Under the pieces are notes generated by a model, which searched no databases, was not told the origin of the DNA, and saw only the letters and a program-made list of their open reading frames with translations. This document shows positions 10,242 to 49,454 of a stretch of DNA of 64,000 nt, piece after piece; the first letter of the stretch is position 1, and the number at the start of each line of letters is the position of its first letter. Made by a program: the position numbers and the translations under genes. Origin of the DNA: Escherichia coli (GTDB taxonomy: Bacteria; Pseudomonadota; Gammaproteobacteria; Enterobacterales; Enterobacteriaceae); NCBI RefSeq assembly GCF_003334255.1, contig NZ_QOWU01000007.1; one strand, given 5' to 3'.

Positions 10242-13200
10242 TTACACCTTTTCCACATTCACAAGGAAGGACTTAAACTCCGGCGTCTGCGTGTTCGCAT
10301 CACCAACGAATGGCGTTAAAGTATTGGCAATAAAGCCTTTTTTAGCTACGCCTTCATAGCCCCAGTGAATCGGAATACCGATGGTATCGATATCTTTGCC
10401 GTTCGCTTTCAGCGTGCGAATACGTTTGGTCACCACCGCTTTGGCTTTGATATAGCCACGGTTGGAGGAGACTTTCACGGTATCGCCCTGGGCAATGCCA
10501 AGTTTATTCGCCAGCGACTCCCCGATTTCCACAAACTGCTCTGGCTGCAAAATCGCGTTCAACAGCGCGTGTTTGGTCCAGTAGTGGAAGTGCTCGGTCA
10601 GACGATAGGTGGTTCCGACATACGGGAACTTATCGGCTTTACCCAATGCTTCGGCGTCGTCTTTAAAGATACGTGCAGCCGGGTTCGAGATAACGTTTGG
10701 ATGCAGCGGGTTAGTTCCCAGCGGCGTTTCAAACGGCTCGTAGTGTTCCGGGAACGGACCTTCCGCCATCTTATCGAGGGCAAACAGACGCCCCATGCCT
10801 TCCTGCTGCATGATAAACGGCCCGACGCCGCTACCCGGAGGCGCTGCGCTGTAGTCCGGAATATCCCAGCCGGTCCACTTAGTGCCGTCCCATTTCAGCA
10901 ACTGACGCTTCGGATCCCACGGGTTACCCTGCGGATCTGCGGAGGCGCGGTTATACAGAATGCGGCGGTTAAGCGGCCATGCCCATGCCCAGCCCAGCGT
11001 GTTACCGAGGCCAGACGGATCGGCGTTATCACGGCGTGCCATCTGGTTGCCTTCCGGCGTCCAGCTACCGGCGAAAATCCAGCAGCCACAGGAGGTTGTA
11101 CCGTCATCGCGCAATTGGGCGAACGAACTAAGTTGTTGGCCTTTCTTGACGATAACCGCACCGGTTGCCGGATCGGTAATATCGGCCAGCGCCTTACCGT
11201 TGCTCTCCATCGCCACTTCTTCTGAAGATGGCTCATGCGGAATGGCGTAGTTCCATGTCATGTTGAGCACCTGGTCCGGGTTCGCGCCACCCTGTTCGGC
11301 ATACATCTTGCGCAAGCGCAGGAAGATACCGGAGAGGATCTCGCCGTCAGTCAGCGCAATCCCCGGGGCGTCCGCACCTTTCCAGTGCCACTGTAACCAG
11401 CGACCTGAGTTAACGATAGAACCGTTCTCTTCCGCGAAGCAGGTCGATGGCAGACGGAACACTTCGGTCTGGATCTTCGACGAGTCAACTTCGTTCAGCT
11501 CACCGTGGTTCTGCCAGAAGTTAGAGGTTTCAGTGTTCAGTGGGTCGATGGTGACGAGGAACTTCAGTTTCGACAGACAACCGATCACTTTGTTTTTGTT
11601 CGGGAATGAGGCAACAGGGTTAAAGCCCTGGCAGATATAGCCATTGACCTTGCCCTCTTTCATCATCTCGAAGTATTGCAGGACGTCGTAGCCTTTATCC
11701 CACTTCGGCAACCAGTCAAAGCCCCAGCTATTTTCCGCCGTCGCTTTATCACCAAAGAAGGCCTTCATCATAGAGACGAAGAATTTCGGGTAGTTGCCCC
11801 AGTAGTTTACCTGGCCTTCCAGCAGCGGTTTTGGCGTGTTGGCGGTAAGGTAGGTTTGCAGATCGGTCTGCTTCTCGCTTGGCAGCGTCATGTAACCTGG
11901 CAGGCTCTGCGACAGCAGCCCCAGGTCCGTCAGCCCCTGAATATTGGAGTGACCGCGCAGGGCGTTAACGCCGCCGCCTGCCATCCCCATATTGCCGAGC
12001 AGCAGCTGGATCATCGCCATCGTACGAATGTTTTGCGCACCAACGGAGTGTTGCGTCCAGCCGAGGGCATACAGGAACGAGGCAGTTTTATCGTGAGCAC
12101 TGGTTTCTGCGATGTATTCGCAGACTTTCAGGAACGCGTCTTTTGGCGTACCACAGATGTTTTCAACCACATCTGGCGTGTAGCGGGAAACGTGCTGTTT
12201 CAGCAAGTTCCACACGCAGCGCGGATGTTGCAGCGTGGTATCGCGTTTGGCGAAGCCGTTTTCGTCCAGTTCATAAGTCCAGGAGGATTTATCGTACTTG
12301 CGTTTTTCCGCGTCGTAGCCGGTGAACAGGCCATCTTCAAAGCCGTAATCCTCACGCACGATCAGGCTGGCGTTGGTATAGGCTTCGGTGTATTCGCGGT
12401 TGAATTTTTCATTGTTCAGCAGGTACAGCAATACGCCTGACAGGAAAGCAATGTCAGTACCGGAACGAATAGGGGCATAGTAGTCAGCTACCGCCGCCGT
12501 ACGCGTAAAGCGAGGATCGATCACAATCAGCTTCGCGCCGTTGTGAATTTTGGCTTCCATCGCCCAGCGGAACCCGACCGGGTGAGCTTCAGCGGCATTA
12601 CCGCCCATCACCACGACGAGGTTGGCGTTCTTGATGTCGACCCAGTGGTTGGTCATCGCACCGCGACCAAATGTTGGAGCAAGACTTGCTACCGTTGGTC
12701 CGTGTCAGACACGCGCCTGGTTGTCGACCGCGAGCATACCCAGCGCGCGGGAGAATTTTTGCGTTAAATAGCCGGTTTCGTTACTCGACGCGGAAGCACA
12801 CAGCATCCCGGTGGAGAGCCAGCGGTTAACAGTCACGCCTTCGGCGTTTTGCGCAATGTAGTTAGCATCGCGGTCTTCTTTCATCAGTTTGGCGATGCGA
12901 TCAAACGCCTCTTCCCAACTGATTTGCTGCCATTTATCAGAACCTGGCGCACGGTATTCCGGAAACTTCAGACGGCTTTCGGAGTGGATGAAATCCACCA
13001 GGCCAGCGCCTTTCGGACAAAGTGCACCGCGGTTGACCGGGTGATCCGGATCGCCTTCGATATGGAAGATAGATGCTTTGGCGTTTTTTGCTCCGTCACC
13101 GAGGCTGTACATCAACAGCCCACAGCCTACGGAACAATAGGTGCAGGTATTACGGGTTTCGCGGGTGCGCAGCAGTTTATACTGCCGGGTTTCCGCGAGT

Positions 13201-21824: not shown

Positions 21825-24834
<3,010 letters not shown>

Positions 24835-30605: not shown

Positions 30606-30692
30606 GTAGGCCTGATAAGACGCTATCAGCGTCGCATCAGGCATCCTGCTCAAATGCCGGATGCGGCGTAAACGCCTTATCCTGCCTGCAAA
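30606..30692. repeat. REP/BIME element between yiiM and cpxA
   Basis: gtaggcctgataagacgctatcagcgtcgcatcaggca ... gccggatgcggcgtaaacgccttatcctgcctgc. Confidence 0.8.
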
Positions 30693-32074: not shown

Positions 32075-32769
32075 GAAGCAGAAACCATCAGATAGCCGCG
32101 ACCACGCAAGGTTTTAAACCACGGGTGACCATCTTTACGATCCGGCAGTTTACGACGCAGGTTGGAAATGTGCATATCAATAGCGCGGTCGAAAGGCGTC
32201 AGGCGTTTGCCCAACACTTCCTGGCTTAAATGTTCACGGGAAACCACCTGACCCAGATGCTGTGCCAGCAAATAGAGCAGGGTAAACTCAGTACCGGTTA
32301 ACTCCAGCGTTTGCCCGTCGAAGCTGGCTTCCTGACGGCCTGGATTCAGCACTAAGGCATCAACTTCCAGTGTCGGTGAACCGTTGTCGTTGTTTTGCTG
32401 TTGCTCGCTCCAGTGCGAACGGCGCAGGATCGCGCGAATACGTGCCACCAGCTCACGATCATTAAACGGTTTCGGGAGATAGTCATCTGCGCCCAGCTCA
32501 AGGCCGAGAACGCGATCAAGTTCACTGCCGCGCGCCGTCAACATAATGACAGGCGTCTGGTGTGTCTGGCGAAGTGCTTTTAATGTGTCGATACCATTTT
32601 TCTTCGGCATCATTACGTCAAGCAAAAGTAAATCAATGCTGTCGTCCAGAAGATCAAGCGCCTGTTCCCCATCGTGGGCAACAATCACGTTGAAGCCTTC
32701 CATCTCGAGCAGCTCCTTTAATAGGGAAGTCAGCTCTCGGTCATCATCAACTAACAGGATTTTATTCAT
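32071..32769 (-). CDS. cpxR: envelope stress response regulator CpxR
   Basis: MNKILLVDDDRELTSLLKELLEMEGFNVIVAHDGEQ; OmpR-family; overlaps cpxA start. Confidence 0.95.
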   Translation of the reverse strand: MNKILLVDDDRELTSLLKELLEMEGFNVIVAHDGEQALDLLDDSIDLLLLDVMMPKKNGIDTLKALRQTHQTPVIMLTARGSELDRVLGLELGADDYLPKPFNDRELVARIRAILRRSHWSEQQQNNDNGSPTLEVDALVLNPGRQEASFDGQTLELTGTEFTLLYLLAQHLGQVVSREHLSQEVLGKRLTPFDRAIDMHISNLRRKLPDRKDGHPWFKTLRGRGYLMVSAS

Positions 32770-32824: not shown

Positions 32825-32839
32825 TTTACGTTGTTTTAC
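32825..32839. promoter_or_regulatory. CpxR box (GTAAA-N5-GTAAA) in the cpxP/cpxRA divergent region
   Basis: tttacgttgttttac, reverse complement GTAAAACAACGTAAA. Confidence 0.65.
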
Positions 32840-32918: not shown

Positions 32919-33419
32919 ATGCGCATAGTTACCGCTGCCGTCATGGCCTCAACGCTGGCAGTCAGTTCATTAAGCCACGCTGCTGAAGTCGGTTCAGGCG
33001 ATAACTGGCATCCGGGTGAAGAACTTACGCAGCGCAGTACGCAGAGCCATATGTTCGACGGCATAAGTTTAACCGAACATCAGCGTCAGCAGATGCGAGA
33101 TCTTATGCAACAGGCCCGGCACGAACAGCCTCCTGTTAATGTTAGCGAACTGGAGACAATGCATCGCCTTGTCACCGCAGAAAATTTTGATGAAAACGCT
33201 GTGCGCGCACAGGCAGAAAAAATGGCGAATGAGCAAATTGCTCGTCAGGTTGAGATGGCAAAAGTCCGCAACCAAATGTATCGCCTGTTAACGCCGGAGC
33301 AGCAAGCGGTTTTAAACGAGAAACATCAACAACGAATGGAGCAGTTGCGTGACGTGACGCAATGGCAAAAAAGTTCATCGTTGAAGCTATTGAGTAGTAG
33401 CAACTCACGTTCCCAGTAG
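32919..33419 (+). CDS. cpxP: periplasmic Cpx pathway inhibitor/adaptor CpxP
   Basis: [24 protein letters not shown] signal peptide; two LTxxQ motifs ([18 protein letters not shown]). Confidence 0.9.
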
Positions 33420-33428
33420 TAAACCCTG

Positions 33429-33486
33429 TTTTCCTTGCCATAGACACCATCCCTGTCTTCCCCCACATGCTGTGGGGGTTTTTTTT
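33429..33486 (+). ncRNA. cpxQ: CpxQ sRNA (processed from the cpxP 3' UTR)
   Basis: Region between cpxP stop and its terminator contains the conserved CCUUGCCAUAGACACCAUCCCUGUC block and the terminator hairpin, as recalled for CpxQ. Confidence 0.5.
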
Positions 33487-33487
33487 A
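33458..33487 (+). terminator. cpxP rho-independent terminator
   Basis: cccccacatgctgtggggg hairpin followed by TTTTTTTT. Confidence 0.85.
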
Positions 33488-33567
33488 TCCTCAATTTGCC
33501 TGCTGCTTAATGCATTGCAGATGATTTGCTTCCGTTATACTAGCGTCAGTTGATAGCGGGAGTATTT

Positions 33568-35667: not shown

Positions 35668-35770
35668 ATGCCTGATGCGCTTCGCTTATCAGGCCTACAT
35701 GAATTCTGCAATTTATTGAATTTGCAAACTTTTGTAGGCCGGATAAGGCGTTCGCGCCGCATCCGGCATG
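35668..35770. repeat. REP/BIME element between pfkA and sbp
   Basis: gcctgatgcgcttcgcttatcaggcctac ... gtaggccggataaggcgttcgcgccgcatccggca. Confidence 0.8.
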
Positions 35771-48855: not shown

Positions 48856-49386
48856 TTACGCTTTGTAGCTTAATTCTTCGATGGTGTGGAAATGGTTGGT
48901 ATAGATGCAAATGTCGCCTGCAATATCCAACGCCTTTTCAGCAATTTCACGGGCGCTAAGTTCAGTGTTTTCTAACAGCGCGCGCGCCGCAGCCTGGGCG
49001 TAAGGGCCGCCGGAGCCGATAGCAATAAGATCGTTTTCTGGCTGCACCACGTCACCGTTACCGGTGATGATAAGCGATGCAGTTTCATCCGCGACTGCCA
49101 GCAGTGCTTCAAGTTTGCGCAGCATGCGATCGGTACGCCAGTCTTTTGCCAGCTCAACGGCGGCTTTGACCAGATGGCCCTGATGCATTTCCAGTTTACG
49201 TTCAAACAGTTCGAACAGCGTAAAAGCATCCGCAGTACCGCCCGCAAAGCCCGCGATGACTTTGTCGTTGTACAGACGGCGGACCTTTTTCACGTTGCCT
49301 TTCATTACGGTATTGCCCAACGTGGCCTGACCATCACCAGCGATGACCACATGGCCGTTACGGCGTACGCTTACTATAGTTGTCAC
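48856..49386 (-). CDS. hslV: ATP-dependent protease subunit HslV
   Basis: (M)[37 protein letters not shown]; full match to recalled HslV. Confidence 0.95.
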
Positions 49387-49454
49387 GAGCTGACCCCTTG
49401 GTTACGAATACAGAGTACAAACCCCGTACAAAAGTACGGGGCATAATGCAATTA

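Follow-up and report, generated by a model that had tools for sequence, protein, structure and literature searches.

CpxQ is a textbook small regulatory RNA (sRNA) derived from an mRNA 3' UTR. RNase E, acting with Hfq, releases it from the cpxP mRNA (PMC9438474, PMC5222698, PMC5736990), with Hfq both guiding the cut and protecting the product (PMC9438474, PMC5736990, PMC5222698, PMC4817254, PMC6755755), and CpxQ shares a Cpx-induced promoter with cpxP (PMC5736990, PMC4817254). A stable RNA of ~58-60 nt, dependent on Hfq and RNase E, has been reported in E. coli and Salmonella (PMC10250213, PMC9438474, PMC4817254), and in E. coli its half-life is over 16 min (PMC10250213). CpxQ acts in E. coli (PMC4817254, PMC6755755, PMC10250213) and represses nhaB, skp, agp, ydjN, fimA and cfa (PMC9438474, PMC5736990, PMC5222698, PMC4817254, PMC6755755), nhaB being repressed regardless of the 5' phosphorylation state of the sRNA (PMC10250213). 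The RNase E-processed sRNAs SroC, SdhX, NarS and MalH resemble CpxQ in their release from an mRNA 3' end, in their use of the parental terminator, in binding Hfq and in their 5' monophosphate (PMC9438474, PMC5222698), but they differ from it in parent genes, seeds and regulons; CpxQ, unlike these four, comes from a monocistronic mRNA and covers nearly the whole 3' UTR. A further relative in position is hrs1 of Erwinia amylovora, which is 74 nt long, Hfq-dependent, located between cpxP and fieF in the same orientation as both ('> > >') and closed by a Rho-independent terminator (PMC4070566).

The window, meaning the whole 64-kb stretch of DNA that was analysed, carries on its plus strand cpxP (32919-33419) followed by fieF and pfkA, with cpxA and cpxR on the minus strand in the open reading frame list. 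This is the E. coli cpx locus, and a 2.5-kb stretch of the K-12 record NC_000913.3 is identical to the window from position 32099 onwards. The element examined here comes immediately after the stop of cpxP and shares its strand, with cpxRA divergent upstream and fieF downstream, and the following features were placed on it and around it.

32825-32839, minus strand: perfect CpxR box, GTAAA-N5-GTAAA, in the cpxR-cpxP intergenic region (the sole zero-mismatch match in 64 kb)
32919-33419, plus strand: cpxP coding sequence, parent mRNA of CpxQ (open reading frame, at the position equivalent to cpxP, b4484, of NC_000913.3)
33420-33428, plus strand: 9-nt spacer UAAACCCUG between stop codon and processing site, upstream of the latter
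33429-33486, plus strand: mature CpxQ sRNA, 58 nt (58/58 to b4716; full-length covariance-model match)
33429-33444, plus strand: 5' seed, CpxQ nt 1-16, UUUUCCUUGCCAUAGA, single-stranded (by fold and conservation)
33445-33459, plus strand: second pairing region, CpxQ nt 17-31, CACCAUCCCUGUCUU (by skp complementarity and conservation)
33442-33458, plus strand: small hairpin AGACA-CCAUCCC-UGUCU, 5 bp (predicted in the minimum free energy fold)
33460-33486, plus strand: Rho-independent terminator with an 8-bp stem, a 3-nt loop and a U8 tail (scan, fold and covariation)

The original prediction, that the stretch between the cpxP stop codon and its terminator has the features of CpxQ, was borne out in sequence, with 58 of 58 positions matching the curated ncRNA cpxQ (b4716, 'small regulatory RNA CpxQ'), which is annotated at 4106330-4106387 of NC_000913.3; the 58-mer occurs once in the window. 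The cpxP stop is indeed the TAG at 33417-33419, and an in-frame TAA comes next. The mature RNA starts 9 nt past the stop codon and has the U8 tail as its 3' end; the span first proposed, 33420-33487, therefore contains the element but is slightly wide against the annotated 58 nt (33429-33486), position 33487 being one base beyond the U tail. No difference was found from E. coli CpxQ (b4716), the window carrying the K-12 allele itself, and the element agrees with CpxQ of Salmonella enterica and E. coli in position, strand, terminator, seeds, CpxR-controlled parent gene and complementarity to cfa, skp and nhaB. On the strength of the sequence match, the match to an independent covariance model and the invariance of its body across species, which are decisive, the element is almost certainly the known CpxQ sRNA of E. 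coli, and no observation speaks against this. That RNA is already known (Chao & Vogel 2016; Grabowicz 2016) and already present in the curated K-12 record. The accompanying claim that such an RNA would be missed by annotation based on open reading frames held for the pipeline-annotated E. coli RefSeq records examined, which have no feature at the locus, but not for the curated reference record, where cpxQ is listed.

The element was found in 5422 of 5426 complete E. coli genomes, with the exact K-12 sequence in only 899 of these 5422 and most of the others about one base different. Position 33470, in the terminator loop (AUGCUG in K-12), is C in the window and A in all 87 loci of other species.

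The way in which the RNA would arise and act is known from the literature, and the sequence of the window is consistent with it. Envelope stress would activate CpxR and switch on the cpxP promoter, for which the CpxR box at 32825-32839 is the predicted upstream control element of the cpxP-cpxQ transcript, and the transcript would end at the hairpin and U8 of the terminator. An Hfq-guided RNase E cut just past the stop codon (CCCUG↓UUUUCC) would then release a stable 5'-monophosphate RNA, whose two single-stranded regions may pair with mRNAs of envelope proteins (nhaB, skp, cfa, agp, ydjN and fimA) and bring about a block of translation or RNase E decay of the target. One transcript would in this manner give both CpxP protein and CpxQ RNA, and therefore joint relief of inner-membrane stress. 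RNase E prefers the motif RN↓WUU with U at +2 (PMC5222698). At the annotated 5' end, +1 to +3 are all U, in agreement with WUU and U+2, and -2 is U instead of the preferred purine; a cut 1 nt downstream would be needed for the full RN↓WUU motif to fit.

An alternative to this trans-acting role is that the 3' UTR works mainly in cis, tuning cpxP mRNA stability or the amount of CpxP protein. It draws on the finding that an E. coli plasmid bearing the cpxP 3' intergenic region lowers CpxP while deletion of cpxQ raises it (PMC4817254); the effect, however, needs the signal-sequence region of cpxP and leaves the abundance of a cpxP'-lacZ transcriptional reporter unchanged (PMC4817254), it was not seen in Salmonella, and mutation of the cleavage site barely affects cpxP mRNA (PMC9438474). 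We hold a main role in cis to be quite unlikely, and it would in any case supplement the trans role, not supplant it; a purely cis-acting element conflicts with the published effects in trans. Still less probable, at very long odds, is that CpxQ is a primary transcript from a promoter of its own within the 3' region of cpxP, in the manner of MicL and DapZ. Although 3' UTR sRNAs of that kind exist, no sigma-70-like site was found between 32700 and 33700, a weak argument in that the scan is uninformative because it also missed the known cpxP promoter; a UUUU start is a poor initiating sequence (PMC10250213), and the literature describes transcription from the cpxP promoter, dependence on RNase E and a 5' monophosphate (PMC5736990, PMC9438474, PMC10250213).

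To compare the locus across species, cpxP loci were fetched with aligned CpxP representatives (clustered at 50%), and the closest 80 species-level loci, all from Enterobacteriaceae, were analysed together with 7 more distant cpxP loci bearing a CpxQ-like 3' UTR. Nucleotide identity to the window among the closest 80 species was distributed as follows.

CpxQ body (31 nt): mean 100%, minimum 100% (80 of 80 species)
Terminator: mean 91.7%, minimum 63.6%
cpxP coding sequence (nucleotides): mean 82.2%, minimum 76%
Next 60 nt downstream: mean 53.6%, minimum 44.7%

The higher conservation of the cpxP 3' UTR than of the coding sequence has been described before (PMC9438474) and agrees with these values. 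In the same 80 loci, CCCUG with 4-5 U before CCUUGCC is invariant (the context is CCCTG↓TTTT in 63 loci and CCCTG↓TTTTT in 17), and a 3' U tail of 7-9 nt is present in 80 of 80. In the 7 distant loci, where CpxP is only ~41-52% identical, the CpxQ element likewise follows cpxP with cpxRA upstream, and CpxQ nt 5-16 (CCUUGCCAUAGA) are invariant in 88 of 88 loci when these are included. The second pairing region is invariant in Enterobacteriaceae and has diverged in the two most distant CpxQ-bearing loci, given here with coordinates within each retrieved locus.

L091, 1732-1806: second pairing region drifted, 5' seed kept
L092, 1698-1773: second pairing region drifted, 5' seed kept

As judged from these alignments, conservation reaches further in the 5' seed than in the second pairing region. 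We also observed exactly two copies of the 11-mer CCCTGTYTTCC in the 64 kb, against 0.09 expected, at 33424-33434 and 33451-33461, 27 nt apart; one runs across the site of RNase E processing, the other is located in the second pairing region, and both are invariant in Enterobacteriaceae.

The predicted fold of CpxQ consists of a free 5' stretch, the small 5-bp hairpin and the terminator, at -17.4 kcal/mol with a modest z-score of -2.3 against shuffled sequences. The inverted repeat CCCCCACA/TGTGGGGG, claimed originally as the strong terminator of cpxP, was found at 33460-33478 with 8 pairs (6 of them G-C) and a 3-nt loop, and its T8 tail at 33479-33486. Compensatory changes were seen at 3 pairs of the terminator stem (CG, GC, UA and AU; 24 cells), a score reached by 0 of 500 shuffles; slid controls collapsed in this covariation test, and RNAalifold recovered both helices. 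A generic terminator scan alone was not significant (2 found against 1.3 expected). The terminator at 33460-33486 is the expected Hfq-binding 3' module, as predicted from its sequence. The stem of the small hairpin is invariant, so that covariation speaks neither for nor against it; the two most diverged loci have an altered loop on an unchanged stem.

The block CCTTGCCATAGACACCATCCCTGTC, which the original prediction had named as the conserved seed region of CpxQ, was found at 33433-33457 as claimed. Its conservation stood, but it is not one seed, as it spans the 5' seed (nt 5-16) and the second region (nt 17-29). Two distinct CpxQ seeds were reportedly defined by Chao and Vogel in 2016, the second resting also on the skp pairing computed here. 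The 5' seed is the region with published support. Target mRNAs were taken from the K-12 record, and unrestricted RNAduplex runs of the 31-nt body against whole mRNAs gave energies no better than those of shuffled controls, for which reason seed-sized windows were adopted and ranked along each mRNA. Along the whole cfa mRNA, the top-ranked site for the 5' seed was -135..-127 with CpxQ nt 4-11, which coincides with the site at which the compensatory pair C11G/G135C validates CpxQ-cfa pairing (PMC6755755). In the Shine-Dalgarno region of skp, -21..-12 pairs with CpxQ nt 17-26, and within it CpxQ nt 18-25 are perfectly complementary over 8 bp to GGGAUGGU at skp -20..-13, a stretch that overlaps the Shine-Dalgarno sequence. 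The published site in the nhaB coding sequence, at ~+307..+314, was recovered as a duplex with nt 6-13 in which U7 faces G, as published and within one base of the published numbering (PMC10250213), but it was not top-ranked, 48 of 1673 windows scoring equally. Pairing energies alone do not discriminate targets. The best 5'-seed site on E. coli nhaB was an 11-bp duplex (2 G:U, -15.3 kcal/mol) at -16..-5, in the ribosome-binding region; a pairing site at the nhaB translation start has been stated as not conserved in E. coli (PMC10250213).

These data bear on the view that the element is a mere cpxP terminator and 3' UTR, with no trans-acting RNA function. A strong intrinsic terminator does exist here, every gene needs a 3' end, and the count of terminator-like structures is not above chance. 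Yet a bare terminator has no need for 31 invariant unpaired bases upstream while its own stem varies with compensation and the coding sequence stands at 82%; those conserved bases are complementary to validated targets, published genetics show effects in trans (PMC4817254, PMC6755755, PMC10250213), and repression of skp, nhaB or cfa by a plasmid-borne 58-nt RNA in a cpxQ deletion strain has already been reported. We give this view practically no credence and retain the trans-acting sRNA.

The original prediction had proposed a search with a covariance model of the CpxQ family, and would have been dropped had no significant match been found. Rfam 15 has no CpxQ family, and at gathering thresholds six matches were found in the window with 0 at the CpxQ locus; the lack of such a family means that this test would have rejected a correct call. 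The six matches above gathering score elsewhere in the window, as expected for this K-12 region, are SECIS_3, naRNA4 (a REP-type element after cpxA), ES036 twice, the ClpQY promoter element and the L31 leader, with coordinates 12652-12710 (minus strand), 30609-30686 (minus), 35691-35732 (minus), 49384-49441 (minus), 54053-54105 (plus) and 55085-55126 (plus). An independent covariance model was therefore built from a 27-sequence alignment of other species only, with E. coli left out. In the 64 kb it gave a single match, 33429-33486 on the plus strand, end to end (85.5 bits, E = 4.7e-19), the runner-up in the window scoring just 10.4 bits. The same model gave no match in locus L096 (1696-1760), where CpxP is 35% identical and an unrelated terminator comes straight after the cpxP stop codon.

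In a permissive Rfam search, the best match at the locus was RF02628 (Hrs1) at 33414-33486 on the minus strand, with 41.4 bits against a gathering score of 56.4; on the plus strand of the locus RF02628 gave no match in this search. Matches to NsiR1 and anti-hemB in the same search were rejected as terminator look-alikes (a chance fit to a hairpin and U tail). In three distant cpxP loci RF02628 scored above its threshold (83.4, 74.7 and 64.6 bits), each time on the strand opposite cpxP and just past its stop.

L088, 1729-1801, minus strand: RF02628 Hrs1 match by model search
L087, 1711-1784, minus strand: RF02628 Hrs1 match by model search
L089, 1705-1778, minus strand: RF02628 Hrs1 match by model search

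Taken at face value, these matches imply a functional RNA on the minus strand (33414-33486), this being the only Rfam family that recognises the locus, at 41.4 bits here and 64.6-83.4 bits in the distant loci. The consensus of RF02628, however, has a run of A first and then a GC hairpin, which is a terminator read backwards, and hrs1 itself is co-oriented with cpxP and fieF (PMC4070566); on the minus strand of the window the hairpin is followed by AAGACAGGG and not by a U tail, and the curated cpxQ lies on the strand of cpxP. A functional minus-strand RNA is accordingly about as improbable as a bare terminator, and that reading is an artefact produced by the Rfam model.

Hrs1 (Zeng & Sundin 2014) and CpxQ are alike in locus, in orientation between cpxP and fieF, in terminator and in Hfq dependence, and they have a common core, CCUUGCCA...UCCCUGUC; as defined, the 74 nt of Hrs1 take in ~16 nt upstream of the CpxQ 5' end. 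The genomic context of hrs1 is found at the window too, the element lying between cpxP and fieF, co-oriented with both and ending in a terminator. Hrs1 is, we conclude, the CpxQ orthologue of Erwinia type, and RF02628 represents its reverse complement. The failure of Hrs1 on E. coli follows from the orientation of the model and its Erwinia-type seed sequences, not from a lack of homology. The omission of cpxQ from pipeline-annotated records is probably due to RF02628 being on the opposite strand and E. coli falling below its threshold. A literature search found no paper naming both Hrs1 and CpxQ.

The 3' part of cpxQ also coincides with a phage attachment site.

33443-33489, no strand assigned: unoccupied attB core, 47 bp, of WPhi/L-413C-type P2-like phages (CpxQ nt 15-58 followed by ATC)

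Near-identical CpxQ copies on what were deposited as plasmids were considered and rejected as chromosomal fragments (sodA-yiiM-cpxAR-cpxP synteny). The records are NZ_CP039131.1 and NZ_CP019203.1, a 51-kb linear 'Pseudomonas sp. A2' and a 178-kb Salmonella Infantis 'plasmid', both with the enterobacterial chromosomal synteny sodA-yiiM-cpxAR-cpxP-fieF-pfkA, and they are probably mis-binned or contaminating contigs. One of these copies is adjoined directly by a P2-type integrase, a junction present in 790 of 5426 E. coli genomes, and integrase homologues adjoin cpxQ in 6 of the species loci, which come from Escherichia, from Kosakonia and from a metagenome-assembled genome. K-12 has the site empty. 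Between cpxQ and fieF, E. coli JJ2434 carries a complete P2-family prophage of 32 kb, flanked by a 47-bp direct repeat GACACCATCCCTGTCTTCCCCCACATGATGTGGGGGTTTTTTTTATC (attL and attR identical at 47 of 47 positions; L100, 2064-2110 and 33987-34033). The attL rebuilds an intact cpxQ, while attR is a 5'-truncated copy in front of fieF. The integrase region of this prophage is 99.7% identical to phage L-413C, which has the same 47-mer between ogr and int (23179-23225; L101, 358-404) with TGTGGACA arm repeats at its flanks. Window 33443-33489 and L-413C 23179-23225 agree at 46 of 47 positions, the only difference being 33470 (C in K-12). The same prophage has a gene for a 'reverse transcriptase family protein' beside a helix-turn-helix gene (L100, 8900-9850), which may be retron-type defence cargo.

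WPhi and L-413C have been listed at K-12 position 4104392, and P2-type sites have been described as mostly intergenic (Nilsson et al. 2011, PMC3448106). A literature search found no paper linking cpxP or cpxQ with P2-like integration or attB. Position 4104392 probably lies inside cpxQ, given the shift of coordinates between versions of the K-12 record. The arrangement is like that of attachment sites in tRNA and tmRNA genes (phage 186 at tRNA-Ile, Fels-2/SopEPhi at ssrA), where the core covers the 3' part of a small RNA gene (PMC3448106), and the 47-bp cpxQ core is likewise long enough to rebuild the intact gene at attL; it differs in that the target is a 3' UTR-derived sRNA and the integrase is of P2 type. 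Though 33443-33489 is the 47-bp core of WPhi/L-413C-type phages and is occupied in ~15% of E. coli genomes, the idea that use as an attachment site rather than sRNA function accounts for the extreme conservation can be set aside, since CpxQ nt 1-14 of the 5' seed, its deepest-conserved part, lie outside the att core, most species keep the sequence with no prophage there, and phages typically target host genes that are themselves conserved and bring along a substitute for the lost gene end, tRNA and tmRNA genes being examples (PMC3448106); it is hardly credible.

With attB formed by the 3' two-thirds of cpxQ, the phage genome and attR both carry a 5'-truncated CpxQ (nt 15-58), which is predicted to retain the second pairing region and the Hfq-binding terminator. 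If transcribed, such a copy could act as a partial CpxQ mimic or as a competitor for Hfq in lysogeny or infection and so alter the Cpx response; this is an unlikely prospect.

There is nothing biologically new in the finding of CpxQ itself, and modest added value lies only in the reversed Rfam model and the overlap with phage attB. RF02628, rebuilt on the correct strand with Enterobacteriaceae sequences and named CpxQ, would allow automatic annotation of this sRNA in thousands of genomes. The att overlap is a tidy example of a phage that targets an sRNA gene and restores it on integration.
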